A stretch of 64,000 bases of DNA from contig JAFQEM010000018.1 of assembly GCA_017399035.1 (NCBI GenBank), positions 18,389-82,388 on the forward strand, in the 5' to 3' direction. Positions 5,563 to 25,089 of this stretch are shown in pieces. This DNA comes from Clostridia bacterium (GTDB lineage: Bacteria > Bacillota > Clostridia > Christensenellales > Borkfalkiaceae). The first letter of the stretch is position 1. Each line of letters starts with the position of its first letter. The position numbers were made by a program, and so were the translations under genes. The notes below the pieces were generated by a model, which worked only from the letters and a program-made list of their open reading frames with translations, searched no databases and was not told the origin of the DNA.

Positions 5563-6549
5563 TTAAGCCTGCGTTATTGAGAATACGGCGGACGAAGAAC
5601 CAACCACTTTTATATAATAAGTGTTAGTATTGTTGCCCGACCTAAACCTTAACGATTGCGACCCTTGACTTCCGGAATCTAAAGATAACAATTTCTCGTT
5701 ACTATCGTATGCGTAAATAGTGGTATTTTCCGTTTCGGTGGTAAGAGTTATATAAATTCTTGAAGTTGTGGTAATTTTATACCACATTTCGCCATAACTT
5801 CCAAAGTCTACGCTAACATCTTGCCCTACAAAAGCATTGATTGCTGTGCCTTTTTGACTGCCGATATATCCAGCAACCCAGTTATCAATGTTAAAACCAG
5901 GGTCAACCGCTACACCCAAGATAGGGTTTTGATAGTACGCCGACGGCGCACTGCCTATTTCGGTAAGAATTGCTTCCCAACGTCCGTTTTCATTAAGTTT
6001 AAGCGTTGTGCGATATATCGGATATATAGTTTGACCTATTGCTATGTTGGGGTTTCTTCTTGCGCCCAAAGGTACGCTTGTGGTAAATAAATAATAAAAA
6101 TCATCAGAACCGTCTGGGAAGTTAAGCACGAACGAAACTTCAGAAGTTGCCTCGTTCAAGTCAAAATAGTTATTTATGGTATCGTCTTCCCAAATATCCA
6201 TACTACCAAGCATATCAGCATCTCGCCACCAAATGCTTTTTCTTTCGGATATTTGCTCAACCAAATAAGAACCTTCCGTGTTAAGCCCAACGCCTACCGT
6301 TTGACCATTTTCCGTTGTAGTTCCGTTCAAGATATTATCAATAAGTTTATGGTGGTCTTGACCAGCCTGATTGTTAGGCAAGCCCTCTGAACCTTTCCAT
6401 TGAAACAAACTTATATCTATATTTAAGTTAAGTTGTTCTGGCGCAGCCCTATAATAAAGCCACGCACCGTGAACGCTAAAATTAGAAAGAAGGAATGCCA
6501 AAAAACACACTAACGCGACTATATAACTAGTTAGTTTTAATTTTTTCAT
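5563..6549 (-). CDS. Secreted protein of unknown function; candidate SipW substrate
   Basis: 328 aa. The N-terminal signal MKKLKLTSYIVALVCFLAFLLSNFSVHGAWLYY ends in a G-AW-Y motif shared with the 211-aa protein. The C-terminal ~75 aa (YKITTTSRIYITL...YYIKVVGSSSAVFSITQA) resemble a PPC-type beta-sandwich pattern; this last point is inference only. Confidence 0.6.
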   Translation of the reverse strand: MKKLKLTSYIVALVCFLAFLLSNFSVHGAWLYYRAAPEQLNLNIDISLFQWKGSEGLPNNQAGQDHHKLIDNILNGTTTENGQTVGVGLNTEGSYLVEQISERKSIWWRDADMLGSMDIWEDDTINNYFDLNEATSEVSFVLNFPDGSDDFYYLFTTSVPLGARRNPNIAIGQTIYPIYRTTLKLNENGRWEAILTEIGSAPSAYYQNPILGVAVDPGFNIDNWVAGYIGSQKGTAINAFVGQDVSVDFGSYGEMWYKITTTSRIYITLTTETENTTIYAYDSNEKLLSLDSGSQGSQSLRFRSGNNTNTYYIKVVGSSSAVFSITQA

Positions 6550-9125: not shown

Positions 9126-9761
9126 TTATCCTTGTTGAGCAGGTGCTTCAGTGATAGTCAACGTGATAATGTACGTTGCAAGAGCAGCCTCAAAAGCTTT
9201 GTTCTTTTGGTAAGTATCTAAAACAATCGCGTTAGGATTTGATACACCAGTTGAATCGGGCAAGAACGTTAAGCATTCAAAAATTTGAGCACAACTGATT
9301 GACGCTCTAAACGTTCCGTCTGCTTGCTTTACAGTACTACCTTTAGGAATAGTGATGGTATTTTCATCCTCCTTAGCGGTGAAAATTGTAACACCTTCAT
9401 ACGCTTGTTTACCACCTTCAACGGTAACCTCAATAATCATATCGATACCATTATCAGCAATGTCTGCGCTTACACCGTCAGCAGGGTCAAAATAGAATTC
9501 TAAATTGCCAGAAGTTTCAACTTCAGGTACATATGCACCAGCGTCGTCAATATGGAAAGCCAAAGTGTCTTTTGCAGAGTCTACGTGAATAGCACCCTTG
9601 CTATCTGCCCACTCAACCGTGGTCATGTTACCGGTTAAGGTTTTGTCAGCAGTTGCAACACTTGCATCTGTTCCGGGATAAACCCACGCTGCGTAAACGC
9701 CACCGATTGTAACTATCAACGCAAGGCTGATAATTAAACTCATTTTCTTCATAAATTTCAT
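9126..9761 (-). CDS. Secreted protein with a SipW-cognate (TasA/camelysin-like) signal peptide; candidate fibre/matrix subunit
   Basis: 211 aa. N-terminus MKFMKKMSLIISLALIVTIGGVYAAWVYPG compares with TasA ...LALVGGGTWAAFND. RBS aggag lies 9 nt upstream. It is the first gene after the operon promoter. Confidence 0.6.
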   Translation of the reverse strand: MKFMKKMSLIISLALIVTIGGVYAAWVYPGTDASVATADKTLTGNMTTVEWADSKGAIHVDSAKDTLAFHIDDAGAYVPEVETSGNLEFYFDPADGVSADIADNGIDMIIEVTVEGGKQAYEGVTIFTAKEDENTITIPKGSTVKQADGTFRASISCAQIFECLTFLPDSTGVSNPNAIVLDTYQKNKAFEAALATYIITLTITEAPAQQG

Positions 9762-10025: not shown

Positions 10026-10799
10026 TTATACCCTTATTCTTTCTTTTATGTCTTTTAGGGCGTTTTTTTCAAGCCGTGAAACTTGCGCTTGCGATATACC
10101 CACTTCTTTAGATATTTCAGTTTGAGTTTTGCCCTCAAAATATCTTAAATAAATTATTTTCTTTTCTCTGCCCTCAAGCGTGCCAAGTGCAGTTGTTAGA
10201 GCAACTTTATCAGTCCAGTTTTCGTCGGTGTTTTTTTCGTCGCCTATTTGGTCAACCAACAGTAGTTCGTCGCCAGACTTGTTATAAACGGGGTCGTAAA
10301 GCGAAACGGTGTCTGATATAGCGTCTAGCGCGTAAACCACTTCGGACAGGGCAACGTTCATCTCTTTTGCAATTTTTTCAAGGCTTACCTCTTCATCTCG
10401 CTTTTCAAGTTCACCACGTGTTTTTAACGCTAAATAAGCCGTGTCGCGTATACTTCTTGCAACGCGCATACTGTTACCCTCACGCAGTAACCTTTTTACG
10501 TCGCCTATTATCATAGGCACGGCGTAGGTGGAAAATTTTACGCCAAAAGACAAATCAAAATTATCTATTGCCTTTATAAGTCCTATGCACCCTGCTTGAA
10601 AAACGTCGTCTGAACAAAAGTTTTTCAAATGAAAACGCTTTATAATAGATAACACTAAACGCATATTACCAACTATAAATTCTTCTCTTGCACGCTCGTC
10701 GCCTTGTTTTATGCGTTTTAACAAGGCGGTTGCCTCTTCATCACTTAAGTGTGGCAAAGTTGCGGTGTTTATTCCGCAAATAACAACTTTACTGTTCAT
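10026..10799 (-). CDS. sigG: Forespore RNA polymerase sigma factor SigG
   Basis: 257 aa. KVVICGINTATLPHLSDEE...GNMRLVLSIIKRF...QAGCIGLIKAIDNFDLSFGVKFSTYAVPMIIGDVKRLLRE is near-collinear with B. subtilis SigG (KVEICGVDTSKLPVL...FSTYAVPMIIGEIRRYLRD). Confidence 0.9.
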   Translation of the reverse strand: MNSKVVICGINTATLPHLSDEEATALLKRIKQGDERAREEFIVGNMRLVLSIIKRFHLKNFCSDDVFQAGCIGLIKAIDNFDLSFGVKFSTYAVPMIIGDVKRLLREGNSMRVARSIRDTAYLALKTRGELEKRDEEVSLEKIAKEMNVALSEVVYALDAISDTVSLYDPVYNKSGDELLLVDQIGDEKNTDENWTDKVALTTALGTLEGREKKIIYLRYFEGKTQTEISKEVGISQAQVSRLEKNALKDIKERIRV

Positions 10800-10837
10800 A
10801 TTTCCTCCTTTATGTAAAACGACTCAAGGGGGTTTTT

Positions 10838-10867
10838 TAAGTATGCTCGTTATTTTTGTTTTTATAC
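10838..10867 (-). promoter_or_regulatory. Candidate forespore (sigma-F/sigma-G type) promoter of sigG
   Basis: Minus strand: GTATA (10867-10863), 17 nt, CATACTTA (10845-10838). This resembles GnATA-N17/18-CATnnTA. It lies between the upstream terminator and the sigG RBS aaggagg. Confidence 0.35.
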
Positions 10868-10884
10868 CCTTGCGTTTAACTATA

Positions 10885-10920
10885 TAATAAAAATTTAAGG
10901 CGGTAGAAAATTCTACCGCC
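10885..10920 (-). terminator. Rho-independent terminator ending the AAA+/TGase/MBG operon
   Basis: Minus strand: ggcggtag-aatttt-ctaccgcc (10899-10920) followed by ttaaattttta. Confidence 0.75.
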
Positions 10921-10950
10921 CGTACGACTTTAATTTTTATTAAGTTAAAT

Positions 10951-13900
10951 TTAGTTATAAGTGAGCGTTCCGTTAAATACTTTGATGTTGTAATTTAATA
11001 AGTCTTCGTACAATACGTCTTCGTTTTGCGTATAAACTCTTTCGCCGTCAACTTCTACGTACCAAATGTTACTGGTTGAAGTGCCTTTTTCTAAACAACT
11101 TCCGCTAACGTAAACTTTAACTTCGTCCCCCGCCATAAATTTACCGTAAGTTATGGTATAGGCGTCTTGCAGTTGTTCACTATCTATAGGCTCGTCACTA
11201 GTTATGCTATTTGCAGTTAGATAAACTTCTTGCTTTCTTATTACGTATTGAGCAGAAGTTACTTCAAATACGTAATTTCCAGCCTCTTCATAACCAACTT
11301 CTTGACCGTTATAACGCATTCTCATTGAAGATAAATCTACACCAACTTCATATTCGCCTGCGTTTACAATTTGGTCAACGTATTGCATAGAGTTTTTATC
11401 GTATGCAGTATACGTGTCAAATCCTAAAATTTCATCACCCTCGGCAAGTTGACCGTAACCCTCTCTTATTTTTTCCACAACGAACTTTCTTCCGGTAAAT
11501 GCGTGCGACTGACCATTGTAATAAGCCTCGTAACCAAAAATTACTATTGATATTTTTGTCAAATCTATAGAAAGCGTACCATAATCGTAAGCAATTTCAT
11601 AATAGTTGCCAGTTTTATCATTGCCAAATGCGTCTATTATTTTATAAGATATTTTATTATCAACCCTGCCGTCTTCTCTTGTTAAAGCAAAGGGTAAATT
11701 GCTTGGGTCTTGTGGAACTATTTTGTGCCCATCTACAAGCGCATTACCATAATCTTCATTAACTAATATTTTATCGTTTGTCAACGGCGTGCCGTCATAC
11801 TCTTTATTCATATTGTCTGAATAAAGATATATGCTTAATTGATTTATAGTTAAATCGCCCAAAGCGGTGGTGTTTATTAAAAAGTTTCTACTTACGTTTT
11901 CGTTTTGTCCGTCGGTTATTTGAACACCACTACACTCTACAACGCCCAAATAAGTTCCCGCATCTATACATTGCTCTTTCAACGTGCAATCAACTTTCAT
12001 ATTATAAAGTGGCATAAGTTCAAAAAATTCGCCATCAGCAGTATAATAACTTAAAACTGCGTTTTCTAAACTTGTGGTATCATCATAATCTTTTTCAATA
12101 TCCACTTTAAGCGACATTTCGCAAGGGGTTATTGTAAGCGTTCCGTTATTTAGCGTTTTTATAACGTAATTTTGCGTTTGGTCTTTGCCGTCGGCACTTA
12201 AGTTGGCAACACGCCATCGATACTCGCCGTTTCTTATAGTTATTGCAGTATTTGTGTCATCAACGTTTATTGCGGAACTAAATAAATCCGCATAAAAAAC
12301 GTGTTCATCTAAAAGATTTTCTACGGTTATAGTTTGCGTTTGGTTAAGAGCGAACGGTTGTGAATAATTGTTTTCATATTCAACGGAATATGCCGAATAT
12401 TGCCCACCATCGTAAACCTTGGTAAAATCTGAAATAGTTACCGTAAGTTCTCTTTTGGTAATTTCAAGTTGCACGTTATCAGTTAAAACTATATAGTTGG
12501 AAGAACAGTCGTTTCCATCTTCGTCAAAGATATAGTATTTTATCTTTTCGCCTTTGTATTCACCCACATTTACGCCGTCCGTCCAAACTTTTATTGTATG
12601 ATTATCAACCACTTCAAGAGAACTTTCCGCATAATCGATAGAAGTTGCATAAAACTCTTGTCCGTTATACTGTTTATTTTCGTCAATAACTAAACTAATT
12701 TCTCTCAACCCAACGGTTATTTCACCATATTCGTAAATAATTTTGTAGTTATCTTTTACCGTTTGATTTACGCTATTTAACACGTCTTTCACGGTAACCT
12801 CATTAGGTCCAGAACCTTGCAAAAGTTCCGTCCAGTCGTCGTTAAGTTCTATCTTATGACCGTCAACAAGCCCTTCTTGGTCTATAACACCGTCTTTAAA
12901 CTTAAAGGTATGAACTTGCCCGTCGTAAATGATACTTGCTTTTGGCGTTTTTATCGTAAGCGGTCTTTTTTCAATAGTTAAATCGCCAGCATTGATAGTA
13001 ATGTTATAATTATCCTTGTTTCCACTTTCAATATCCCACTCAAGAATTTTTACGCTTTCTAAATATGTGCCTGCATTTATGCAACCTGTGGGCAGTTCGC
13101 ATTTTGCAACTCGGATTTTTTGATTTCCGTAAAGATTTTCGGTTAAAACGCCCTCGTCTTCTTCCTTTAATACGGATACAGAAACATCCTTAGCGTGGAT
13201 TTCCGCGCTATCATCATAAGTTTTAACTGCGTTTGCAAAAACAAAAACCTGCCTTGGTGTTACTGTAAGCGTGCCTGCCGTTACTGTGTAGTTAAAGTTT
13301 TCTAACGCGCTCTCATTATTTTGGTTTTTAATATCGTTTATGATTATGGTGTTTTCTGCACTGCCAACGTCGGTTATACTACCCGTAACGCTCACGTCTA
13401 AAGTATGGTCGCTAGGCATATTGTAGTAAACGTATTCGTTGAGAGTAAATGGTTCTGCATTATAGATTGCGCTACCGTCATAAGACTCTATAGTTATATC
13501 ACGCTTGTTTATGATTAAAGCAGAGTCCTCTTCAATGATAACTTGATAGTTTGTGGTAACTTCTTTTGTAGGCTCAAAAATATGTAAGTCAACACTTTCT
13601 TTACCGTAAGTTTTTGCCTTTACGTCATTTGAACAAACAGTCATATAATGGCTGTCAACTAATTCCCCACTAATAAATTCAAAATTATCTTCCATTAAAA
13701 GGGCATAGCCGTCATAATTTTTTTCATTATTAAACTTTAGTCTAATAGGGCGGGGCGTTACGGTCAACTTACAATCTTCAAAATTATCCGTTATCTTGTA
13801 ATTGTTTGTAACGACAAGGTCGCCACGAGAAGAACTTTTTATGCTATAACTTGGCACGTTATCAACCGAATTAACGTCGGTTATAGAACTAGAAAATTGA

Positions 13901-15492
13901 ATATCTAATCTATCGCCAAACCCAAGTTCGCTATAATAAACCTTGTTATCCGCCACAAGTTGCTCTAAAGTTTCGCCAACGAACGTGAGTTCAGTGCCGT
14001 CGTAAACCTTTTCGTCATCAAAAACGGTAATTGTGAGTGGTTTAGGCGTTATTTTTAAGTTGCCAAAATTTTCAGTTATAAGGTAGTTTGATATAACGCT
14101 ATTTCCGTATGCATTTGTAATATAGTAAATAGGCGTGTTTTGAATTTCGTCAACGTCTATTATTGACTCGTCAAACACAATTTCTATATTATCGTCGTCG
14201 GCAAGTTGCCCAAGTTCAATTTTTCCTTGCGATATAAGTTCTTCTTTCGATAAACCAACAAACGTGAGTTCAGTGCCGTCATAAACTTTTTCTTGGTCTT
14301 TGACGGTAATTGCGAACGGTTTAGGCGTTATTTTCAAGTTGCCAAAATCTTCGGTTAAAACGTAATTTGATATAACACTTTCGCCTTGAGAATTTAAAAT
14401 ATCGTAGTCAGGCGTGTTTTGCTCGGTAACCGCATTTATTATAGATTTTGTAAACTCAACGTCTATCCTGTCGCCCTCTGCAACGTTGCCAAGCATAAGT
14501 TTTCCGCTTTCAATTAGCGTGTCAATATTTTCGCCTACAAAAGTGAGCGGTGTTCCATCATACTCTTTACTTACTTCGTTTACCTTTATTATAAACGGGC
14601 GTGGCAATATTTCTAACGTACCAAACTGTTTGTTTATATTATAGTTCGCAGAAACGTCTTGTCCGTCTGCATTTTTAATAGCGAAAACAGGGGTATTTTC
14701 CACAAAACCAACGTTTGTTATTGACTTATTAAACTCAATTTCTATTTTATCGTCAAAAGCAAGTTCACCAAGCGCAATCTTGCCCTGTTCGATAAGTTGT
14801 TCTTTTGAAAGATTTGTAAAAGTTAATTCTTTTCCGTCGTAAGTTTTATTTTCGTCAGCGACCTTAAAAGTAAATCTTTTTTGCGCAACGTATACGTTTT
14901 TTTCTGACGCGTTAATATTATAACAATGCGTTACGTCGTTACCTAATTTGTCTTGTATAACAATGCTATCTTTTAGCGCAGATATTTTTTGAGTTCCAAC
15001 CGTCTTTTGTAAATTATAATCTATTTGACTAATTTTGTCGCCGTTTTTAAGGTCAGCAACGTAAGTGGGCATATCGCCGTAAGTAAGGTTATTTTCTTTA
15101 ATTTGAACGTCAAGACTTGCAGGTTCTATCACAAGCGGAACGGCACGACTATAATTTTTTATACCGAACGTACGCTTTGAATATGCGCGCACACTATAGT
15201 CCCCCGTCTGCGTAGGCAGACCGTCAATCCACTCGTTACCGTCTGCTAACTTATGTTCATAACCCACTTTGCTAAACAACGCCCCTGCGCTACACTCAAC
15301 GCGTTGACCATAAACTATTTGCGGTGTAGAAAGGTTTATATCGTCAGTAAAAATTCCACGCACGGATAAAAATGCAACGTACAACGCCAAAATAGCCCCG
15401 ACAACTGAAAGTATCAGAACTTTATGCTTTTTTATCTTATCGACTATTTTAGCGATTTTTTCAATTTTTGTTTGATAATTTTTGTATAACAT
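10951..15492 (-). CDS. Giant signal-anchored surface protein made of ~13 YDG/MBG-like beta repeats
   Basis: 1513 aa. One N-terminal TM (VLILSVVGAILALYVAFLSV). Repeated units have the form K-x-YDG-x-x-L-T ... G-D/H ... NY-x-I ... G-x-L-x-I-x-P-R/K-P. No LPXTG motif, no catalytic motif. Confidence 0.75.
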   Translation of the reverse strand: MLYKNYQTKIEKIAKIVDKIKKHKVLILSVVGAILALYVAFLSVRGIFTDDINLSTPQIVYGQRVECSAGALFSKVGYEHKLADGNEWIDGLPTQTGDYSVRAYSKRTFGIKNYSRAVPLVIEPASLDVQIKENNLTYGDMPTYVADLKNGDKISQIDYNLQKTVGTQKISALKDSIVIQDKLGNDVTHCYNINASEKNVYVAQKRFTFKVADENKTYDGKELTFTNLSKEQLIEQGKIALGELAFDDKIEIEFNKSITNVGFVENTPVFAIKNADGQDVSANYNINKQFGTLEILPRPFIIKVNEVSKEYDGTPLTFVGENIDTLIESGKLMLGNVAEGDRIDVEFTKSIINAVTEQNTPDYDILNSQGESVISNYVLTEDFGNLKITPKPFAITVKDQEKVYDGTELTFVGLSKEELISQGKIELGQLADDDNIEIVFDESIIDVDEIQNTPIYYITNAYGNSVISNYLITENFGNLKITPKPLTITVFDDEKVYDGTELTFVGETLEQLVADNKVYYSELGFGDRLDIQFSSSITDVNSVDNVPSYSIKSSSRGDLVVTNNYKITDNFEDCKLTVTPRPIRLKFNNEKNYDGYALLMEDNFEFISGELVDSHYMTVCSNDVKAKTYGKESVDLHIFEPTKEVTTNYQVIIEEDSALIINKRDITIESYDGSAIYNAEPFTLNEYVYYNMPSDHTLDVSVTGSITDVGSAENTIIINDIKNQNNESALENFNYTVTAGTLTVTPRQVFVFANAVKTYDDSAEIHAKDVSVSVLKEEDEGVLTENLYGNQKIRVAKCELPTGCINAGTYLESVKILEWDIESGNKDNYNITINAGDLTIEKRPLTIKTPKASIIYDGQVHTFKFKDGVIDQEGLVDGHKIELNDDWTELLQGSGPNEVTVKDVLNSVNQTVKDNYKIIYEYGEITVGLREISLVIDENKQYNGQEFYATSIDYAESSLEVVDNHTIKVWTDGVNVGEYKGEKIKYYIFDEDGNDCSSNYIVLTDNVQLEITKRELTVTISDFTKVYDGGQYSAYSVEYENNYSQPFALNQTQTITVENLLDEHVFYADLFSSAINVDDTNTAITIRNGEYRWRVANLSADGKDQTQNYVIKTLNNGTLTITPCEMSLKVDIEKDYDDTTSLENAVLSYYTADGEFFELMPLYNMKVDCTLKEQCIDAGTYLGVVECSGVQITDGQNENVSRNFLINTTALGDLTINQLSIYLYSDNMNKEYDGTPLTNDKILVNEDYGNALVDGHKIVPQDPSNLPFALTREDGRVDNKISYKIIDAFGNDKTGNYYEIAYDYGTLSIDLTKISIVIFGYEAYYNGQSHAFTGRKFVVEKIREGYGQLAEGDEILGFDTYTAYDKNSMQYVDQIVNAGEYEVGVDLSSMRMRYNGQEVGYEEAGNYVFEVTSAQYVIRKQEVYLTANSITSDEPIDSEQLQDAYTITYGKFMAGDEVKVYVSGSCLEKGTSTSNIWYVEVDGERVYTQNEDVLYEDLLNYNIKVFNGTLTYN
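13755..14880 (-). repeat. Four highly similar ~279-nt (93-aa) tandem coding repeats inside the 1513-aa gene
   Basis: For example, 13977-14100 and 14257-14380 are near-identical (caacRaacgtgagttcagtgccgtcRtaaac...ggtttaggcgttatttt). The protein units begin FTFKV / FIIKV / FAITV / LTITV. Confidence 0.8.
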
Positions 15493-15514
15493 TTTTTACC
15501 CGTTTATTTAACGT

Positions 15515-18500
15515 TTACACATCAACCGTGATTGTGCCAAATGCAATTTCTATGTGGTAGTTTTTAGTAACGTCTTTACCACTTGCGTCAAGTATCTTTA
15601 ACGTATTGCGCTCAAAACTATTTGGGCATTCACCGTAATAAGATATTTTACCAGTAAATACAAGTTCGTTTGATATTTTATGCCCAGCAACAAGCCCGCT
15701 AACGACTAAATCTTCCATTTCACCATTAAACGTTGTTATTCCATCGTAGGAATACTTTACGTCTTTAGTTTTAACAGTTATTTCCTTTTGAGTAATTTTC
15801 AAATTTCCTACAACGGTAACTTTATAATAATCTTTAGTAACGTCGTTACCACTTGTATCTACAACTTTTACGCTTACGCTCTTCTTTGTGCCTACGTCGG
15901 TTATACTATTGAATTGAACGTCAATGGTATGTCCGTAAAGCGTTGTTCCCACCGGTGTATATCCCTTATCATAAACTAACGGTGTTCCGTCGTAAACTTT
16001 AGACATATTTTCAGCCGTTACCTTTATAGATTTATAAAGGAACAATTCTCCATTATAACCTTTTTTCGTTTCGTACTTTATTTTATAATTTTGAGTTACC
16101 GTATCGCCGTTGCTATCTACAATGCCAAACTCGCACTCGTTTTTATGTCTTCCGCACGTTGAAACACTAAATGATTTTGCTAATTCTACCTTGTGTCCAT
16201 CTAACAAGTCGTTTTCATCTTGTAATTCAAAATCATAACTATATAATTTTGCAGATGCAACAAATTCCTTCTCTGCGTCTTTGCGATATATAACGATATC
16301 TCTAGGTTCTACTTTGACGGTACCATATTCGTATTTAATTTCGTAATACTTGTCAGTTACGTCTATTCCGTTTTCAAAAATTATAATCTTAAATTCATTT
16401 TCAGTAGTTTCACCAACGTTAGTAGGATTGAATTCGCCTTCAAATTCACCTTTTTGCACCTTATGTCCGTCAAGAACTTTTCCATAAGGCATATCGTCTT
16501 GGTCTAAACCGGTGTCAAACCAGTACACTTGCCAAGATTCTTTATTGTCTTGGCGGATTGCATAATTAGCGTCGTATTGATGATTATAGTTATCAGTATT
16601 AACGCATAACTTTATTCTAACTATTTCAAACGCGCCTTCTTTTGCGTCAATCTCATAGTTGTTAGTTACGTCTTCTCTATAATTAGTACAGTCAACTATT
16701 CTATACGTTTGAATATTTTTGTGTACACCGATATCTTTTGCCTCAGTCGTGGTCAACAACTCAACGCTGTGGTCGTTAAGTAAACCACGCGATTCTTCAT
16801 AATTTATACCTTCAAAGTCGTAATTTTCACTCTTTTGCAATTCACCAGTATAAGGCAACTTTATTTCTTTTTTGTAATACGGGCTGTCAACATTTCCGCT
16901 TGCCCAAATGGTTATGGGGCGCTTGCTTATTTGCAGAGTGCCATATTCAACTCGCTTTATTTCATATTCTTCTGTAATATCGTTTCCAAACTCGTCGCGT
17001 ATAACGTATTCAAATCCGTTATTTTGATAGGGCGCGCAAGCGTTGACGGGCATTTGAATATCTTGCCCACCAACTACTTCAATATAATGACCACTCTTAA
17101 GATAGCCGTCGTATTCCCATTTAATAGCCTCTGAATAATCAATAGGTATTCCGTCATAAACCTTAGACACGCTAGGCGTTTTAAGAACAAGTTCGTTCTT
17201 TCTAACTTCGTCAAACGCACCACCAGTAACTTCAACTTCTACCCAGCCCATACCGTCAACGTAAATTTCCACCCACGCGTGAGCGTATTTACCCGTAACA
17301 ACGGTAACGTTATAAGGTTCTGCCGTAACTTTATATCCACAAGTATATCTTGCAGGTATTCCGTAAGCGCGGAATATCATTGTTGCGGCGGCTGCAAAGT
17401 GTTGGCATATACCCTCTTTACCCTCTTTCAAGAAGTATAAAACCATATCTTCGCCCGCAGGGAACGTATCAAACTCAAGGTTATAACCTGCGCAATTTTG
17501 AACGTAATCACGAATTTGTCTAGCAATAGACAGTTTATCCCCCCAAAAATATCCAGTCAAATCTAACAACTCGTTTTTCAACCACTCGTCAATATTTAAA
17601 TAGTTATTATAAACGAAATTGCGGTATCTGCCCTCTTGCGAAGTTAAATCAGATGGCACTAAATAAGTTTGCCCTTCTGCCAAATAGTCGTAATTACTAG
17701 CCTTTGTCATATATATAGGCAAAGATTGAGAAAAACGAATGTCCCCCGTTTCTTTTATTCCGCCAGTTATTGAATAATAAGGCAAATAATATGCGTTTGA
17801 ACCGTCAAGATTTTCTATAACTATTTGGTCCATAACCCTGCCCGCGTTATTCAATGCCGTTCCAGTAAAATACAACGGACTAACTACCGACTGGTCATAC
17901 TCTTGAGCATAATCAAAACCACTGCCGTTATAATCACCAAAATTTTCGTAACGAAGATAATATTCGCTAGCAACGTTTGAATAAGAAATTAAACTTAAAA
18001 CTTCAACGTCTGCATTGTCGCCAAAACCGTTGCCCTGCTGTTGAAGATTATTATCAAACCGTTGATTACCTGCGCCACCTAAACCGCCTTGCCCAACACC
18101 TACGCTTGCGCCGTTGGGGTCGTCGTCGTTTTCATTGAGAATACCGTCGCCGTCTATATCGTTATCTATATCGTTAGGCATACCATCGCCGTCTACGTCG
18201 TCGTCTTGACCGTTGGGCAAACCGTCGCCGTCTACGTCTGCGTCTTGACCGTTAGGTGTGCCGTTTCCGTTTACGTCGTTATCTTGATAATTAGGTATGC
18301 CGTCGCCGTCGGTGTCTAAATTTTGATTTGCCATCATTGACGCCATAACTTTTGCGGCTATCGCTTGCATCAACTGCTCTCTTTGTTCCTCTGTCAGGTT
18401 TGAATTTTCTAACTGTTTGAGCAAATCTTCTATATTCATATTTTCAAGGTCGAGTGAAGAAAAATCGTAATTGCCAAATCTATCAATTAAATCTTCAATT

Positions 18501-18898
18501 TTTTCTTTGTCAAGTTTATCCCAGTCAATCCAACCCTCTTCGTGCACAATCAATAGCCCTGGCGTTTCAATTATTCTGTATTCGTTAGTAACCGAATTAC
18601 CTGCTTGGTCTACGATAGTGTAGTGGAAATAGTTAAAAGACGCGCCTTTTTCCGTCTGTGAACCATAAGTTTCAACTATAAGCGAATGTCCGTCTTTGAG
18701 TTTGCCGTGTCTAATACCAAAACTCTCGCTAGTTAGCGGTGTTCCATCGTAAGCCTTTTCAGCAATACCCGAATAAATTACTAGTCTTCTAGTGTCAACG
18801 TAACCGGTAGAAATAACGGCAAAACACGCGCAAATCGAAACGAAAAGCGCGACTAATACACCTATTAAAAAATAATATAAACGTATTTTATTTTTCAT
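15515..18898 (-). CDS. Signal-anchored transglutaminase-like protein with thrombospondin type-3 Ca-binding repeats and YDG/MBG-like repeats
   Basis: 1127 aa. N-terminal TM, then one MBG-like unit. D-x-D-x-DG repeats at aa ~195-262 (DTDGDGIPNYQDNDVNGNG...DIDGDGILNENDDD). TGase core: GICQHF (Cys498), YAHAWVE (His540), GWVEVEVTG. Then ~6 further MBG-like units. Confidence 0.8.
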   Translation of the reverse strand: MKNKIRLYYFLIGVLVALFVSICACFAVISTGYVDTRRLVIYSGIAEKAYDGTPLTSESFGIRHGKLKDGHSLIVETYGSQTEKGASFNYFHYTIVDQAGNSVTNEYRIIETPGLLIVHEEGWIDWDKLDKEKIEDLIDRFGNYDFSSLDLENMNIEDLLKQLENSNLTEEQREQLMQAIAAKVMASMMANQNLDTDGDGIPNYQDNDVNGNGTPNGQDADVDGDGLPNGQDDDVDGDGMPNDIDNDIDGDGILNENDDDPNGASVGVGQGGLGGAGNQRFDNNLQQQGNGFGDNADVEVLSLISYSNVASEYYLRYENFGDYNGSGFDYAQEYDQSVVSPLYFTGTALNNAGRVMDQIVIENLDGSNAYYLPYYSITGGIKETGDIRFSQSLPIYMTKASNYDYLAEGQTYLVPSDLTSQEGRYRNFVYNNYLNIDEWLKNELLDLTGYFWGDKLSIARQIRDYVQNCAGYNLEFDTFPAGEDMVLYFLKEGKEGICQHFAAAATMIFRAYGIPARYTCGYKVTAEPYNVTVVTGKYAHAWVEIYVDGMGWVEVEVTGGAFDEVRKNELVLKTPSVSKVYDGIPIDYSEAIKWEYDGYLKSGHYIEVVGGQDIQMPVNACAPYQNNGFEYVIRDEFGNDITEEYEIKRVEYGTLQISKRPITIWASGNVDSPYYKKEIKLPYTGELQKSENYDFEGINYEESRGLLNDHSVELLTTTEAKDIGVHKNIQTYRIVDCTNYREDVTNNYEIDAKEGAFEIVRIKLCVNTDNYNHQYDANYAIRQDNKESWQVYWFDTGLDQDDMPYGKVLDGHKVQKGEFEGEFNPTNVGETTENEFKIIIFENGIDVTDKYYEIKYEYGTVKVEPRDIVIYRKDAEKEFVASAKLYSYDFELQDENDLLDGHKVELAKSFSVSTCGRHKNECEFGIVDSNGDTVTQNYKIKYETKKGYNGELFLYKSIKVTAENMSKVYDGTPLVYDKGYTPVGTTLYGHTIDVQFNSITDVGTKKSVSVKVVDTSGNDVTKDYYKVTVVGNLKITQKEITVKTKDVKYSYDGITTFNGEMEDLVVSGLVAGHKISNELVFTGKISYYGECPNSFERNTLKILDASGKDVTKNYHIEIAFGTITVDV

Positions 18899-18917
18899 CT
18901 TTCTACCTTTTACATTG

Positions 18918-19286
18918 TTAATCGTAAACGACCAACTGCCCGTAAGTTTTGATAATTTGATAACTTGAAGTTACGTTTTTGCCTTCTGCATCAGTTATAA
19001 CTACTCTAAAAACGTTATCGGATGTTCCCTCTTGAGTTCTAGTGCCAACAAACATAACCTTTATGGTATGACCTTCTTTTAAGTTACCCTTGGTTACTTC
19101 ATAACTTTCACAAGTGAGAGGCGTTCCGTCGTAAAGTTTGCTTGCGCTTGCTGACTTTATTTCAATAATTTCTCTAGGCATAGATACAACGCCCGTCAAA
19201 ACAAGCGTAAAACAAATGATTATTGCTAGGACCATAGTGATTACGAATCCTGACATAACATAAAACCATTTTTCTTTTTTCTTCAT
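18918..19286 (-). CDS. Small signal-anchored protein with a single YDG/MBG-like domain
   Basis: 122 aa. TM (FVITMVLAIIICFTLVLTGVV) followed by ASKLYDGTPLTCESYEVTKGNLKEGHTIKV...SSYQIIKTYGQLVVYD. It is paralogous to aa 1-120 of the 1127-aa protein. Confidence 0.75.
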   Translation of the reverse strand: MKKKEKWFYVMSGFVITMVLAIIICFTLVLTGVVSMPREIIEIKSASASKLYDGTPLTCESYEVTKGNLKEGHTIKVMFVGTRTQEGTSDNVFRVVITDAEGKNVTSSYQIIKTYGQLVVYD

Positions 19287-19305
19287 ATCTTTTGCCTTCT
19301 TAACC

Positions 19306-20703
19306 TTAAATAGTTCTTTCTAAATGTCTTAAATAATCTTTGGTTAACGTCATCTTTTCTTGTCCGAAAGTCTCTTCTATGTGCGCACATAATCCGTCTA
19401 TCGCATTTCTTACGTATACGGGGTTTTGCATCTCTAACTTTCTCATTATCTTCTTTGCTATGATGTCGTCTACCGCCTCTTCTTCCGTTCCACCGCACGC
19501 TATGTACGCTGATACGTATTCTTTTAACTGTTTCATTATACGGTTACCAAACGTTATATGAAAGTTCTCTATCATATATCTGTCTAACTCTTTTATCTGC
19601 CTTAACTTCCTGCCCGTTATTCCGTATTCTCTCTTCGCTTTTGCTATTAGTTTCTTAAACCTATCGTACGTTATTCTTACGCCTTCCGTATCTTCTGCGT
19701 AAAATACGTGCGTCTTTTTATCTAGATTCATTATCATTGCTCTATCGTATACCTTATCCGATATCGCAAACGTTGAGTCGTCGTTATTTGCAGTCCCTAT
19801 AAACCACATATTTTCGGGTAGTTTTAGTTGTCCTTTCTTTAATAACTTCGGGTCGTTATCCCACTTGTCCGTTACTACGTCTATATATCTTCCCTCTGGG
19901 TTTGGTAACTCTAATAACGACAAGAATTCTGCAAAGTAATATTCTACCCTTGCTATATTCATTTCGTCTAGTACCGTTATGTATATCTCTTTACTATAGT
20001 TTGCCTCGTACATCTTTTGCAACAAGGTTGTTTCGTTAAACTTTTTTGTAAATTCGTTATAATACCCCACTAGGTCGGTTCTCTCTTTCCACATAGGTTG
20101 TATAGGTACTATTACTGAATGATTACTTAAAAATTCACCAAACGCATACGCTAACGAAGTTTTACCCGTACCACTCATACCTTGCATTATGATTATATGT
20201 GATACTGCTAAACTTGCTACGAATCTTCTTATCTCTCTTATATCGTAATATAACTTCAATCTGCTTGCGGCAAAGTTTCTAAACCTTTCGCAAAACTCTT
20301 TCATTGTTATTTCTTCATCAAATCCGCCCTGCGGTTTATTGCGCATTACTCTATCCGTTTCGGTTAACATATAGAAACGTGAGGGGTGCTCTTCACTATC
20401 TTTTTCTTTTTCCTCTGCGCTAGCACCCACCGCCGTCGTGCTTGCGATTGAAGAAGTGGCGGTTACAGGTTTACCGTTGTTTACCTTTTCAACGTAATCA
20501 CGAAGTTTATCTAACTCTTCGGTTTCTTCCGCACGCCTACCGTGGTCAAAAACCACCGCAACCACTAGGATAACTACGGCAAGAAGAAGAACTACAACGT
20601 AAATTAAAATTGCTATTTGGCTAGAGAGCGCAGTCCAAATTGTATCCGCAACGGGATTGTCGCTTACAGCCATTAAATTATTTAACGCATCAAACTTATA
20701 CAT
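19306..20703 (-). CDS. Membrane-anchored McrB-like (AAA_5 type) AAA+ NTPase
   Basis: 465 aa. TM at aa ~29-52. Walker A QGMSGTGKTS, Walker B ITVLDEMNIARVEYYFAEFLSLLE, then WFIGTANNDDSTFAISDKVYDRAMI. This is the McrB/dynein-related AAA pattern (DEINRAN...FGEL..LLE; IGTMNtaD...RRF). Confidence 0.75.
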   Translation of the reverse strand: MYKFDALNNLMAVSDNPVADTIWTALSSQIAILIYVVVLLLAVVILVVAVVFDHGRRAEETEELDKLRDYVEKVNNGKPVTATSSIASTTAVGASAEEKEKDSEEHPSRFYMLTETDRVMRNKPQGGFDEEITMKEFCERFRNFAASRLKLYYDIREIRRFVASLAVSHIIIMQGMSGTGKTSLAYAFGEFLSNHSVIVPIQPMWKERTDLVGYYNEFTKKFNETTLLQKMYEANYSKEIYITVLDEMNIARVEYYFAEFLSLLELPNPEGRYIDVVTDKWDNDPKLLKKGQLKLPENMWFIGTANNDDSTFAISDKVYDRAMIMNLDKKTHVFYAEDTEGVRITYDRFKKLIAKAKREYGITGRKLRQIKELDRYMIENFHITFGNRIMKQLKEYVSAYIACGGTEEEAVDDIIAKKIMRKLEMQNPVYVRNAIDGLCAHIEETFGQEKMTLTKDYLRHLERTI

Positions 20704-20722
20704 TTAATCTCTCCACCCGTAA

Positions 20723-23110
20723 TTATTTTTTCAATCCGTAAACGGAGATTGCTTGTTTTGTTAAAGGAATATTTTCAAACCCGAAAAGTTCGTCTAGTTT
20801 GAAAGAAAAATCTTGCTCGGGAACTGCCAAAATTTTATCTTTTTCGGTAGCAACAAGCGGAATTATTTTTTCACAAAGTATAGCGTCTAGAGCCTCTGCC
20901 TTGTTCATACCGCACGCGATAAACGCCGCAATATTTTCTTCCATTTGTCTTATAAATCTGTTGTCAAAACGGATATCGGTGTTCTCTTCAAGATATTCTT
21001 CTAAACGGTCTATCTTTCTCCAGTAATCTTCAGTTAGATAACAGGTTTCTTGAGCCTCTTCAAGCGATTCTTTAATCATACCGAAAGAAGTTCCGCTCTT
21101 TATAAACAACTGACTATCTGCGTCGTTTCTCATTGTGAGTGGCAAGTCTACGATAGAAGAATATTTAATCCACTCGGGTTCTAGCGCCGTAGCCTTATCT
21201 TCCCCTATAAATACTACCATTCTTAAGTTGTCTGAAATTTTAACGCTACCACGTCCGTAATATTCAGTTTCTGGTAAACCTTTTATCTTGCCTACGAACA
21301 CTTTTTCTTCGTTACCAGCGATTGCGGTAATTACGTCTGCATCAAAGTCGCCTATTGCATCAACGGCGGTGTTATCAACGAACACCAAACCGAAAGTGTT
21401 GTAAAGATAGTTTGCAACGAATAACCCACCCGCAACACCGTATTTAAGTTCTCTCTTCTTCTCTTCGTCCGTTTTGGGTTTATAAACGTAAACGGGTTTT
21501 TCAACGGGCTTAACCACAGGTTTAACTTCGGCAGGCGTTAATTCGTCTTGCGTAGACGCAACCTCTTCCGCATTTTCTTGTTCAGAACTGCTTTGCGAAT
21601 TTATACCTGCAAGAAGGTCTGCAATAGACGTTCCACCCGAACTTTGCTCTTCGGGTTTTTCTTCGGTTGAAAGGTCGCCAACAAGAGCGGATAGAGAATT
21701 GCTTTCGGGTTTTTGTTCTTGCGCGCTCTCAATAGACGCAGCAAGGTTAGTTACAACCGATTTATATTCTTCTTCAGGATTTTCTCTTCTCTCATAGAAC
21801 AAGTCTTCACCAAAGAAGGTAGATATGGTGTCTGCAAATTCCCTTAAAACGTCAGAATTTGCGCCACTTTTTATAAACGTAACTTTTGACGAAAGTATTG
21901 CCGCAAGAACTTTTTGCATTTCGCCTTCGTCAGTTATAATGCCACGGTCGTTAACTGCAATACACAAGTTTTTGCACATCTTGTCAATAGAAGTTTTATC
22001 TTTAAAGTCAAGATTTTCGTTACGAATTTCAAGTTCGGTTTCACTCCAAGCCCTAGGCTCTTCTTTAGCCGTTTCGGTCAACGGTTTTGAAACGTCATTA
22101 GTTGCAGGTTGTTCGTCTTTCTTGAAGAAACCCTTAAATTTAGGAACTTCTTCAACGTACATTTTACTGCTTACTAATTTGTTGTAAACTTTTGCGCCAA
22201 CTATATCTAAAACGCCTATCAAAACTAGCAAAATAATTGACCAAACTTCTTCATAACCGTTTGCGATAATCATATTGATTATGAGTGAAGAGCAAGCGAT
22301 TAAATATATAACGTGTTGCCAAATAGGTAAGGGACTATATTTTGAATGTTTGCGACCTCTTGTGGTCATATAAGAAAAAGCGTTGTTCAAGGGCATACAA
22401 ATTTTAACGGTTGATAGCACCAAAATGAACAAGTAAATTACGCTTGCTGTGTTATAAACACCCGCAACCCAGTCTTGCCTAGCAGTGTCGAAAATAATAT
22501 GATGTTGAGAACCATCAAACCAACTTTCCATCATATAACGAGTGCCAACGGTATCTCTTCTATGCAAAACGAAAAAGAGCATAAATATTTTTGAACCCCA
22601 AGACAAAAGGTAATATAAAACTTTACCTTTACTTGGGCGCAAGTCGTAATTACATAGTTGAGCGATAAGCGCAAATATAAGACCTATCGCATAAAGAATA
22701 AGCACTATAAACCAGTATTCAATGCCGTAACTGGTGCTGAGCGCTTCCATATTGTTGGTAAGGAAAAACCCTACAAATACGCCAAGCGTCAAATTTATAG
22801 TGTTTGCAAACAATTTATAAAAACTATATCCCACACCAGCGCGGTATTTTTTTAGGTTATTAACCATAACCACAGCGACTACCAACAAAATAATTGAGTG
22901 GCATAGCATAGATATAGTTGCAATTAGGTTACCATATTCGCCCCTACCAAACCTTTTTAAGCCCGATTCAAAAAGCGAACCGTCTTTACCAGTCGGTAAA
23001 AACGGAATAACCATAATTATGAATAATGCGATAAACCCGTAAATGGCGGTAGCGTATAAACTTCTAGATTTTTTGATTGAACTTACGCCACCTTTTGTAG
23101 TCGTTGACAT
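20723..23110 (-). CDS. Polytopic membrane protein (~8 TM) fused to a degenerate McrB-like AAA+ domain
   Basis: 795 aa. aa 1-320 are hydrophobic helices, followed by an acidic S/E/P-rich linker. The C-terminal ~330 aa are collinear with the 465-aa ATPase but have lost the P-loop (IKSGANSDV vs QGMSGTGKTS) and Walker B (VFVDN vs VLDEMN). The shared tail is FxNRxxxQxxExxxAxIACG. RBS aaaaggag. Confidence 0.75.
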   Translation of the reverse strand: MSTTTKGGVSSIKKSRSLYATAIYGFIALFIIMVIPFLPTGKDGSLFESGLKRFGRGEYGNLIATISMLCHSIILLVVAVVMVNNLKKYRAGVGYSFYKLFANTINLTLGVFVGFFLTNNMEALSTSYGIEYWFIVLILYAIGLIFALIAQLCNYDLRPSKGKVLYYLLSWGSKIFMLFFVLHRRDTVGTRYMMESWFDGSQHHIIFDTARQDWVAGVYNTASVIYLFILVLSTVKICMPLNNAFSYMTTRGRKHSKYSPLPIWQHVIYLIACSSLIINMIIANGYEEVWSIILLVLIGVLDIVGAKVYNKLVSSKMYVEEVPKFKGFFKKDEQPATNDVSKPLTETAKEEPRAWSETELEIRNENLDFKDKTSIDKMCKNLCIAVNDRGIITDEGEMQKVLAAILSSKVTFIKSGANSDVLREFADTISTFFGEDLFYERRENPEEEYKSVVTNLAASIESAQEQKPESNSLSALVGDLSTEEKPEEQSSGGTSIADLLAGINSQSSSEQENAEEVASTQDELTPAEVKPVVKPVEKPVYVYKPKTDEEKKRELKYGVAGGLFVANYLYNTFGLVFVDNTAVDAIGDFDADVITAIAGNEEKVFVGKIKGLPETEYYGRGSVKISDNLRMVVFIGEDKATALEPEWIKYSSIVDLPLTMRNDADSQLFIKSGTSFGMIKESLEEAQETCYLTEDYWRKIDRLEEYLEENTDIRFDNRFIRQMEENIAAFIACGMNKAEALDAILCEKIIPLVATEKDKILAVPEQDFSFKLDELFGFENIPLTKQAISVYGLKK

Positions 23111-23175
23111 TTGAGTTTCTCCTTTTCCGCTATGAAAGCAGATACCTTTGCGTATTTATTTGCTGAAAAACCGTT

Positions 23176-23246
23176 ATAAAAAAACAGAAACGCCGTTTGC
23201 AACGGGCATAACGGCGAATGGAAAATATCCGAATAAAAATCGGATA
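23176..23246 (-). promoter_or_regulatory. Two tandem terminator-like hairpins in the 5' leader of the five-gene operon
   Basis: Minus strand: tatccga-tttttat-tcggata + ttttcc (23226-23246), then cgccgtt-atgcccgttgca-aacggcg + tttctgttttttt (23176-23216). Both lie between the promoter and the ATG at 23110. Confidence 0.55.
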
Positions 23247-23323
23247 AAAATTAAACTTTTTCCTTTGCGCACACTCACGATTCTTCAAGTGTATTAGTTA
23301 TTATAAATAACTATCCGTGTGCT

Positions 23324-23352
23324 ATTATATATCTGTAAAGTAAAAATGTCAA
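23324..23352 (-). promoter_or_regulatory. Consensus sigma-A promoter of the AAA+/TGase/MBG operon
   Basis: Minus strand: TTGACA (23352-23347), exactly 17 nt, TATAAT (23329-23324). Predicted TSS near 23317, giving a leader of about 205 nt. Confidence 0.7.
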
Positions 23353-23403
23353 GTGTTTTAACACGCTAACGCCATATAGCCTTATTAGAGTTTCAAAAAC
23401 CTT

Positions 23404-23442
23404 AAAAATTGACAAAACCGCAACCTTTTTAAGATTGCGGTT
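23404..23442 (-). terminator. Terminator hairpin after sigE
   Basis: Minus strand: aaccgcaa-tcttaaaaagg-ttgcggtt (23416-23442), starting 12 nt after the sigE stop and followed by ttgtcaattttt. Confidence 0.6.
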
Positions 23443-23453
23443 GAAAATATATT

Positions 23454-24161
23454 TTAAATCATTTTTGCAAACTCTTTTTTCAATCTTACTATAATTTTCT
23501 TTTCCAAACGAGATATGTAACTTTGTGAAATTCCTAGCATATCGGCAACTTCTCTTTGCGTTTTTTCTTCTGAACCTTTAAGCCCGTATCTCAATTCCAT
23601 AATCTCACGCTCTCTATCGTTAAGTTTAGTGAGCGCAACCCCCAAAAGTTCACTCTCTACGCCGTTTTCTATTTTTTTATAAACCACGTCGCCGTCAGTA
23701 CCCATAACGTCTGAAAGCATAAGTTCGTTGCCTTCCCAATCGGTGTTGAGCGGTTCGTCAAAAGACACTTCACTTTTAATTTTAACCGTGCGCCGTAAAT
23801 GCATCAAAATTTCGTTCTCTATACAGCGCGACGCATAGGTTGCAAGTTTTATATTTTTATCTGCATTGAAAGAATTTACCGCCTTAATTAGCCCTATAGT
23901 ACCCACCGAAACCAAGTCGTCTAAGTCTACGCCAGTGTTTTCAAAACGCCTTGCGATATAAACTACCAAACGCAAATTATGTTCTATAAGTTGGTCGCGT
24001 ATTTGCTTTTCGCCCTCACCCAACTTTTTTAGCATATCCGCCTCTTCTTCCCCACTATAAGGCAAGGGCAAAATTTCACCGCCACCTATAAATCTTAAAA
24101 GATTTTGACTTAAAGAAAATTTTTCAAGAAACTTTTTCAACTTGCTTAATACGTTCATCAC
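23454..24161 (-). CDS. sigE: Mother-cell RNA polymerase sigma factor SigE (pro-sigma-E)
   Basis: 235 aa. Pro-sequence, then [16 protein letters not shown]...[64 protein letters not shown], near-collinear with B. subtilis SigE. It sits immediately downstream of spoIIGA. Confidence 0.92.
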
Positions 24162-24948
24162 TGTTCTCCTTATAAAACGCTGGGTGTAAAATTAAATCGT
24201 AGCCGTCGCCTACGGTATCGGCAACGCACAGCGTTACTTTATTAAATATATTCGCTTGTTCTTCAATATATATCTTTATTTGGTCAAGTTCTACTGCTAT
24301 ATTTTCAACACTTCCCGACACGGTTTTTACCATAATTTTTTTAAGTTTTATTTTATGCAAGTTTTCACCCACAAAATCAACAAAAAACTTTTTTTCGCAC
24401 AAAACCACAGGGTTTTCGCCGTCGTAAAGCCCGTTTCCCGTATCCAAAAAACCGCGAACGGTTGCAGTTTTTTTGCGCAAGGTTATATCCACCTTAAAAA
24501 TAAACGCCTCTATATCTTTACGCCTATAGATATACTTAATTGTAGAATTTACACACGCTATTAAAACCCAAACAGGCAACACCATAATTGCAACTGAAAA
24601 TTGCGCCGAATAATCAAGACCAAATATATTATAAATGCCAACTATTGCTCCACCCACGGCAAAGGTTAAAAGGAAAAATATTAAGGTGTTTAGTAGGTAC
24701 GCGCGTTTTGACGGATAAACGTTAGCAACAAGCGTCAACAAAAAGCCCGACAATATTCTAACCATAAGCGAAATAAACTTAACGTGAGCAATAAGCGGAT
24801 AAACAAGCGCAATGACCGCACCTAAAAAAGAGCAAAATAAAAGCCTACCCTTACTATATCCGTTTCCGGTAAGCGCAAAGGTGGCTTTAAGTAATAAATA
24901 ATCGATTATAACGTTGTCAATTAAAACGTATTCAATATAAACGGTCAT
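24124..24948 (-). CDS. spoIIGA: Sigma-E processing peptidase SpoIIGA
   Basis: From M11 of the track ORF: [21 protein letters not shown], five TM helices, then [11 protein letters not shown] (aspartic protease DTGN motif). Adjacent to sigE. Confidence 0.88.
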
Positions 24949-25089
24949 CTTTGCCCCCGCGCCTTTAGATTGTAGCATAAGGGTAAAAGCCGTTTAAGTA
25001 AGTTTTTTATGTATTTTAATTTATTTTGTAGAAAAGATAAACCGCCCGAAAAATTTCAAGCGGTTTGTTCTTAAATTTGTATTTTTAAT

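Follow-up and report, generated by a model that had tools for sequence, protein, structure and literature searches.

What is a McrB-like nucleotide motor doing in one operon with giant surface repeat proteins? The question is raised by five genes, g1 to g5, all on the minus strand of a 64,000-nt stretch of contig JAFQEM010000018.1 (Clostridia bacterium, assembly GCA_017399035.1), which we call the window and whose positions serve as coordinates throughout. The initial annotation of this locus proposed an envelope system made up of two AAA+ proteins, a transglutaminase-like protein and repeat-rich exported proteins. We find all five open reading frames (ORFs) as described, with spacers of 19, 19, 19 and 22 nt in order, a consensus sigma-A promoter and a terminator, but five genes are not the full set, since same-species contigs add two more, X and B'. 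What had been missed was the derivation of the system from McrBC as a pair, with the nuclease-less McrC-type X and the second McrB-like gene B' belonging to it. The best explanation of the locus is that a McrBC-type pair of the clade related to the CoCoNuT systems has shed the parts for nuclease action and nucleic-acid binding and is now tethered to the membrane. Arguing by analogy, we give an even chance to the reading that this membrane-tethered, McrBC-derived GTPase module controls the display, assembly or processing of the giant surface proteins.

The evidence that carries this reading begins with conservation of the cluster. The g2 family comprises more than 8,000 clusters at 90% identity and 1,107 clusters at 50% identity (E ≤ 1e-30), and GTDB species representatives contain at least 528 copies of the gene. 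The cluster is found in at least 60 species-level genomes of Christensenellaceae, other Clostridia and Anaeroplasma/Acholeplasma-like Bacilli. All loci from species-representative genomes (72 of 72) belong to metagenome-assembled genomes (MAGs), labelled Christensenellaceae/Christensenella, Clostridia, Eubacteriales or Oscillospiraceae and, in nine cases, Anaeroplasma(taceae), Acholeplasmatales, Haloplasmataceae or Bacilli. Classification of the ORFs in 70 non-redundant loci (75 fetched, minus duplicates) gives a canonical order D-B-X-B'-(T or M)-M, where D, B, T and M are represented in the window by g1, g2, g4 and g5, and a form with six to seven genes is the norm across other species. The complete D-B-X-B' core is present in ~29 loci and is followed by T/M genes wherever the contig goes on; most loci without it are broken off by contig ends. 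Of 59 loci that could be assessed, 47 have D upstream of B; of 49, an MBG protein follows downstream in 44, and one of the next two genes encodes a transglutaminase core in 26. The same gene order thus recurs in dozens of species-level genomes, as the initial annotation had asked of Clostridia genomes and MAGs, and D-B-X-B'-(T/M)-M is a widely conserved and apparently undescribed gene cluster of uncultured gut Firmicutes. Full-text literature searches returned no description of this gene composition, which agrees with what had been supposed, and nothing relevant on McrB with a transglutaminase, an MBG domain, PDC-M26 or giant adhesins of Christensenellales.

Outside the window's species the orthologous clusters adjoin unrelated genes, for example BipA or recG-plsX-rnc. 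The only recurrent neighbours are LRR_5 proteins and a ~230-aa membrane protein without a Pfam match. In 22 loci a large BspA-type LRR_5 protein, encoded on the same strand, directly precedes D (e.g. L022:784-4764 and L028:3767-6787), and in 16 the ~230-aa membrane protein family occupies the position directly upstream of D; both may be facultative additions to the system. The LRR_5 protein of the window itself lies ~20 kb from the operon (Table 1).

B, the product of g2, bears the marks of a McrB-like NTPase with intact motifs. It consists of an N-out single-transmembrane (TM) anchor at aa ~28-52 and a predicted cytoplasmic McrB-like AAA+ domain, in which Walker A (GMSGTGKTS), Walker B (VLDEMN) and the signature GTANNDDS are invariant in 20 homologs. 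Pfam places the domain in AAA_5 (8.7e-7) and the NCBIfam McrB match is weak; when a 20-sequence g2 profile is searched against the Protein Data Bank (PDB), the best match is E. coli McrB (6hz4, E = 0.004). A direct hhalign comparison of B with E. coli McrB gives 94% probability (E = 1.2e-7), the alignment running ungapped through sensor-1/PENxxxIGxxNxxD. In Foldseek, the AlphaFold model of B (predicted local distance difference test score, pLDDT, 71) retrieves MCM, McrB (in second place), RavA, NorQ and dynein-type AAA+ folds. The model contains one continuous helix, aa 29-75, made up of the TM segment and a charged helix, and a Pfam scan of B reports no FtsB/DivIC domain. Judging by the McrB homology, the nucleotide used by B is more likely to be GTP than ATP.

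B' is a second McrB-like gene (474 aa in the window's species), situated between X and g3. In the 33 loci that hold both copies, B and B' are wholly different in their first ~60-150 residues: B carries its N-out single TM anchor with the motif W..L(S/T)....A...Y, and B' an N-in two-TM hairpin. The 3' segment that they share has a median length of 1143 nt and a median DNA identity of 98.5%, and the same AAA domain is ~61% identical at the protein level between species (median, across orders). Drift between the two copies amounts to at most 7% of nucleotides and is nearly all synonymous, with 62 differing codons and 2 amino-acid changes in one locus and 39 differing codons and no amino-acid change in another (L068). 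This pattern points to concerted evolution together with very strong purifying selection, by which one AAA domain would be maintained on two anchors. A variant of B found elsewhere (P0245, 682 aa) has a signal peptide, a ~280-aa extracellular domain and a Pro/Thr-rich linker ahead of the TM segment and the McrB-like domain; some members of the family therefore appear to carry an extracellular module of their own.

The first gene, g1, encodes D, which its missing motifs mark as a genuine, catalytically dead pseudo-AAA+ protein. Hydropathy predicts 7-8 TM segments within aa ~20-310, close to the eight of the initial annotation, and sequence comparison identifies aa ~366-795 as an AAA+ paralog of g2, predicted to be cytoplasmic and interrupted at aa ~440-560 by an acidic low-complexity insert. 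Walker A, the acidic pair of Walker B and the N..D (NxxD) signature are missing from g1 and from all ~45 aligned orthologs, and g1 has no family match in Pfam or NCBIfam. Among D orthologs the dead AAA+ domain is constant and the N-terminal part varies, being polytopic in the window and elsewhere either GH3+Fn3 followed by a TM hairpin or a zinc ribbon with two TM segments. Because the GH3+Fn3 part has no signal peptide and is followed by a TM hairpin, it is predicted to be cytoplasmic, and D of this type would be a sugar-enzyme-like domain joined to a pseudo-ATPase inside the cell. Most species have this form of D, with an N-terminal GH3 (+ Fn3-like) glycosidase-type domain (e.g. L017:6599-9940, L002:6811-9966 and L021:6755-9982).

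X, the partner of B, measures 500-720 aa across species and 554 aa in the window's species, its gene being absent from the window. Domain and profile matches identify it as a probable McrC-type (DUF2357) protein that lacks a nuclease and carries a long coiled coil. DUF2357 is the N-terminal domain of McrC and stimulates McrB (PMC11090510). The N-terminal domain of X scores 25.2 bits against Pfam DUF2357 (threshold 23.3), and 14 of 34 X-family members match the family individually (best 4.5e-9). By hhalign, X aligns at 97.1% probability (E = 7.6e-11) with the DUF2357 CnuC-like neighbour of P0283, the Evansella vedderi GTPase discussed below. The C-terminal half is one ~190-residue helix/coiled coil (model helix 349-536), and the X profile finds only coiled-coil proteins among PDB sequences. 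Pfam and profile scans and the predicted structure yield no nuclease family match. The most conserved segment of X is a predicted hairpin, E71-H102.

The window copy thus has five genes where seven are usual. Some same-species contigs (98% nt identity) have the order [B 3' end]-X(554 aa)-B'(474 aa)-g3-g4-g5-sigG, and others match the window (D-B-g3-g4-g5). X is also found on eight orphan contigs of ~2-3 kb, which is typical of an unresolved assembly-graph loop. We read the order D-B-X-B' in this species from that of other species together with the R-X and X-B'-g3 junctions; a direct N1-R-X junction was considered and rejected, the ~3.2-kb orphan contigs being unrolled graph cycles (N2-R-X-N2). 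In L076 the two copies of B can be told apart at 3 of 207 sites, which indicates that they are real and separate. Single-nucleotide polymorphisms at the 3' end of the window's g2 (copy-1-like versus copy-2-like) form a mixed pattern. Probably, then, the window form reflects either a jump or collapse of the assembler across the 1.1-kb B/B' repeat or a recombinational deletion of the loop in some strains. The practical warning is that this repeat lets short-read assemblies break or drop two genes of the operon.

The remaining three genes encode the surface proteins. Each of g3, g4 and g5 has one N-terminal TM segment, predicted from hydropathy to be an N-in signal anchor, so that the anchors would be kept, as had been noted. 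A C-terminal LPXTG is absent from all three (g4 has merely an internal LPYTG at aa 681, which is not a sorting signal), and Pfam finds no SLH domain in the operon proteins, again in agreement with the initial annotation. An iterated repeat hidden Markov model detects MBG/YDG-like repeats in all three proteins: 1 in g3, 7 in g4 and 15 in g5. The first of these counts was anticipated; for g5 the TM segment and repeats stand, but not the count of ~13. The g3 protein, a TM segment with one MBG-like repeat, is a second copy of the N-terminal end of g4 (40% identity) and is seen solely in contigs of the window's species.

In T (g4) the TM anchor is followed by one MBG-like repeat and an acidic linker, then by four DxDGDGxPN motifs and a transglutaminase-like core; the other six MBG-like repeats come last. 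Its core and repeats are as first annotated, but the TSP3 repeats claimed for it come down to the four Asp-rich motifs, Pfam TSP_3 not being reported at E ≤ 0.01. The closest solved structure to the core is the periplasmic domain of Pseudomonas aeruginosa TgpA (6g49, 2.5e-9), which bears out the analogy with TgpA modules drawn earlier. Cys498 and His540 are aligned with their TgpA counterparts, and Glu556 replaces Asp; in ~34 T orthologs the catalytic-core Cys and His are kept and the third residue is Glu or Asp. Given the N-in anchor, the core is predicted to lie outside the cell. M (g5) has a basic cytoplasmic tail (aa 1-24) and a TM helix (aa 25-45) ahead of its 15 repeats, with a Pfam YDG match at 2.4e-10. 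The tail motif MxYxxYxxKIxKxAK, placed just before the TM helix, is common to all 42 of 42 M orthologs.

How might the two halves of the system work together? By analogy with McrBC (PMC11090510), B and B' would form a hexameric ring at the inner face of the membrane. The conserved hairpin of X would stimulate GTP hydrolysis, as McrC does for McrB, while the coiled coil of X could dimerise and bridge or space rings, and D would tune the ring according to its variable input domain. The ring might then act on the membrane-embedded N-termini of the T and M giants, notably the basic cytoplasmic tail of M, and would thereby govern how these are assembled, displayed or released. The extracellular T enzyme, for its part, may cleave or cross-link the repeat proteins. 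A bolder version of this proposal pictures a new transmembrane mechanochemical machine, in which a two-anchor McrBC-type GTPase ring, tuned by a pseudo-ATPase with swappable sensors, grips the cytoplasmic tails of the giants and uses GTP to drive assembly, tension, retraction or release of a membrane-anchored surface fibre; this we put forward tentatively and regard, on balance, as doubtful.

Several observations weigh against control of the giants by a McrBC-type module. The cytoplasmic module is joined to the surface proteins only by conserved gene order, and, the carriers all being MAGs, the link is known from genes alone. Within a 10-kb flank, about half of the loci show no transglutaminase core, and the cytoplasmic tail of M is conserved just modestly above the rest of the protein (0.48 versus 0.37-0.41). 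As for X, hhalign against E. coli McrC gives no match, Foldseek of the X model returns no McrC-like fold (the key region has pLDDT <50), and X would be dispensable if the window form were real and functional. Finally, the nearest relatives of B belong to predicted defence systems.

The last point underlies the alternative that survives best. After B itself, the next-best relatives of its profile (~1e-103) are proteins of 700-870 aa that bear the signature TANRDES and a coiled coil of ~430 residues. One such relative comes from an Evansella vedderi operon of VWA, PP2C, Ser/Thr kinase, UPF1-like helicase, a 521-aa protein, GTPase and DUF2357 genes, whose content matches the CoCoNuT systems of Bell et al. 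2024 (PMC11090510), a predicted defence system. Together, the B profile matches, the hhalign result for X and a match of g2 to the PADLOC defence-candidate model PDC-M26A (3.6e-48) place B and X as a pair in the CoCoNuT-related McrBC lineage, with the CnuB/CnuC pair as their closest counterpart. The system might thus serve in anti-phage or inter-bacterial conflict, the giants sensing or acting as decoys and the membrane module transducing or executing; the variable N-terminal domain of D, as often found in sensor domains, and the fast evolution of T and M (~25% identity between species) would be in keeping with such a role. However, Pfam, NCBIfam and PADLOC scans find no nuclease, HEPN, toxin or other effector among the conserved genes, and the neighbours are housekeeping genes rather than defence islands or mobile elements. 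The median 61% identity of B across orders, the near-zero non-synonymous change between its copies and a gene order that is stable in many lineages are likewise unlike typical defence genes. We consider a role in conflict rather unlikely.

The comparison with CoCoNuT also brings out what is particular to the present system. As with several CoCoNuT types, the McrC homolog lacks an active nuclease and has a coiled coil, and the B profile matches CnuB-like coiled-coil GTPases. In contrast to CoCoNuT, there is no HEPN or other nuclease, helicase or RNA-binding domain here, B has a TM anchor and short helix instead of a long coiled coil, and the partners are extracellular repeat proteins. With regard to the NxD clade to which CoCoNuT GTPases belong, the ANNDDS of B admits two readings, NxD+D and NxxD; its alignment with NTAD of E. 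coli McrB has no gap, and the closest, CnuB-like outgroup has ANRDES. With E. coli McrBC the system shares an AAA+ GTPase with Walker A, Walker B and N..D signature and a separate partner with a McrC-type N-domain; it differs in having no DNA-binding N-domain and no PD-(D/E)xK nuclease, in being membrane-tethered with a TM anchor as the B N-terminus, and in the absence of detectable similarity between X and E. coli McrC.

The one published indication of anything comparable is CoCoPALM. It is presented in one paragraph as a GTPase with an FtsB-like TM segment and coiled coil, a McrC homolog with a coiled coil, and signal-peptidase-family (pilus assembly) genes (eLife 13:RP94800, PMC11090510), the authors deferring a fuller description (PMC11090510); the supplements and the preprint contain no CoCoPALM accessions or details, and a search for a follow-up paper found none. 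Compared by this published description alone, the two are alike in being McrBC-derived, in a GTPase with an N-terminal TM segment and helix, in a coiled coil on the McrC homolog, in having no obvious nuclease role and in having surface-fibre proteins rather than DNA as partners. The B signature NNDD can also be read as 'NxD then D', and the closest outgroup of B is the NxD-clade CnuB. On the other hand, the signal-peptidase-family genes that define CoCoPALM are not found among the conserved neighbours here, B has no Pfam FtsB/DivIC match, B' has a two-TM hairpin, and the CoCoPALM account omits a dead D, a duplicated B/B', MBG giants and a transglutaminase. We therefore regard the system as new in composition, yet kin to McrBC-derived, CoCoPALM-like systems.

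A second alternative is suggested by T. TgpA-type proteins usually adjoin MoxR and DUF58 genes, and the g4 core is closest to TgpA; the AAA+ proteins might then be merely chaperones or insertion factors for the maturation of the transglutaminase-like protein and the giants, and not a regulatory motor. Two further matches of B lend themselves to this idea, its Pfam family being AAA_5 and Foldseek also retrieving RavA and NorQ. As in the MoxR-DUF58/VWA-TgpA (Bat-like) modules, an AAA+ gene adjoins a membrane protein with a predicted extracytoplasmic Cys-His-acid transglutaminase-like core. But the ATPase here is of McrB type (Pfam AAA_5 only) with a McrC-type partner, not MoxR (AAA_3), and no VWA or DUF58 gene is found in the operon or among the conserved neighbours, the absence already noted by the initial annotation; on these two grounds the system is not a MoxR-VWA-TgpA module. 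The transglutaminase, moreover, is part of a protein built of MBG repeats and is an optional element, seen in 26 of 49 loci against a constant set of B, X and D; two anchors on one AAA domain together with a dead paralog with variable inputs suggest regulation over chaperoning. All told, a maturation role is unlikely.

A functional analogy is offered by the LapD-LapG-LapA system of Gram-negative bacteria, with type I secretion system export. There, a giant repeat adhesin on the surface is the target of a transglutaminase-fold cysteine protease, which is controlled by a transmembrane signalling protein whose cytoplasmic nucleotide-binding domain is degenerate. The two systems have no sequence relationship: Lap has BTLCP/DUF920 and GGDEF-EAL domains where Transglut_core and AAA+ are found here.

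The genomic setting of the window raises a third possibility, namely that the operon is a sporulation-specific builder or remodeller of a spore or forespore surface layer, as the initial annotation had surmised. Spore-formers normally have spoIIGA-sigE adjoining sigG. In the window, spoIIGA and sigE lie upstream of the operon and sigG downstream (NCBIfam SigE 2.8e-113, SigG 5.3e-106; SpoIIGA matched), separated by the 12.4-kb operon in a layout seen solely in contigs of this species. The promoter of the operon is a perfect vegetative sigma-A consensus, the sole perfect TTGACA-17-TATAAT in the 16.5 kb scanned, ~207 nt upstream of g1. This promoter and the terminator-like hairpin after sigE indicate that the operon is an independent unit inserted between spoIIGA-sigE and sigG. 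The sigE/sigG position is absent from the other species examined, whose clusters lie in unrelated neighbourhoods, and further copies of the cluster come from MAGs with the labels Anaeroplasma, Acholeplasmatales and Haloplasmataceae, lineages that are not known to sporulate. The spore link is not supported: the connection is incidental and specific to the window's species, and a sporulation-specific function is very improbable. That the genes are simply adjacent and share no function is hardly credible: T/M content does differ between species, but dozens of species with different flanks show the same order, strand and short gaps (~20 nt at most), B and X are homologous to a known interacting pair, and D is a paralog.

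Between the promoter and g1 runs a leader with two terminator-like hairpins, each with a T-run and both ahead of the ribosome-binding site (RBS), which could form a candidate attenuator. An Rfam search of the 207-nt leader found no riboswitch or known RNA at gathering scores or E ≤ 1. A comparison across species found no conservation of the leader beyond its own species, within which it is kept. Directly upstream of spoIIGA is a 640-aa ORF with no Pfam or NCBIfam match, which contigs L082-L084 of the same species also retain. An 824-aa protein encoded two genes past the end of the operon, with two N-terminal TM segments and four ~140-aa C-terminal repeats, has a weak match, below cut-off, to the SipW/archaeal-type signal peptidase I family (NF046067, 4.1e-9). 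The secreted proteins that flank it have in common an 'AW(V/L)Y' motif after their signal anchors. These three genes look like a TasA/SipW-style fibre cluster; the SipW-like gene is a lead and not a match to CoCoPALM. A SipW-like protein as conserved partner of the system was rejected, as the gene is particular to this window and none of the 75 loci has a SipW-like ORF.

Table 1. Features of the operon and its surroundings, in window positions
Feature	Position	Strand	Size or composition	Basis
640-aa ORF directly upstream of spoIIGA	25090-27012	(-)	640 aa	
Region with spoIIGA-sigE, operon and sigG	10026-24978			
Terminator-like hairpin after sigE, before the operon promoter	~23410-23442		hairpin with T-run	sequence
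Sigma-A (sigma-70) type promoter	23324..23352	(-)	TTGACA-17-TATAAT	12/12 matches
5' leader	23111..23317	(-)	~207 nt; two terminator-like hairpins and RBS (GGAGA) before the g1 ATG	
First leader hairpin	23246..23226	(-)		
Second leader hairpin	~23207..23180	(-)		
g1 (D)	20723..23110	(-)	795 aa	
g2 (B)	19306..20703	(-)	465 aa	
Part of g2 duplicated in B' (X and B' missing from the window)	19306..20457	(-)	~1.1-kb repeat	
g3	18918..19286	(-)	122 aa	
g4 (T)	15515..18898	(-)	1127 aa	
Asp-rich, Ca-binding-like DxDGDGxPN motifs of g4	18131..18316	(-)	four motifs, aa 195-256	sequence motif only
Transglut_core of g4	17231..17536	(-)	aa 455-556; Cys498/His540/Glu556	Pfam 2.5e-21
g5 (M)	10951..15492	(-)	1513 aa	
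Intrinsic terminator-like hairpin, operon end	10898..10921	(-)	10 bp, 6 GC pairs, then T-run	
Secreted protein next to the SipW-like gene	9126-9761	(-)		
824-aa SipW-like protein	6581-9055	(-)	824 aa	NF046067, 4.1e-9
Secreted protein next to the SipW-like gene	5563-6549	(-)		
LRR_5 protein	42701-44392	(+)		

McrBC-type GTPases have so far been known as motors of DNA restriction and, by prediction, of RNA restriction. A nuclease-free, membrane-anchored version in conserved synteny with giant surface proteins suggests that a restriction motor has been re-used for envelope biology. As far as seen, the carriers are only poorly understood, uncultured gut lineages such as the Christensenellaceae. 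The system is a candidate route by which these bacteria, including apparently wall-less ones, may mount or regulate giant adhesins without sortase and LPXTG. Should the more tentative picture of a mechanochemical machine prove true, it would be a wall-independent alternative to sortase pili in small-genome gut Clostridia and Mollicutes-like Bacilli.

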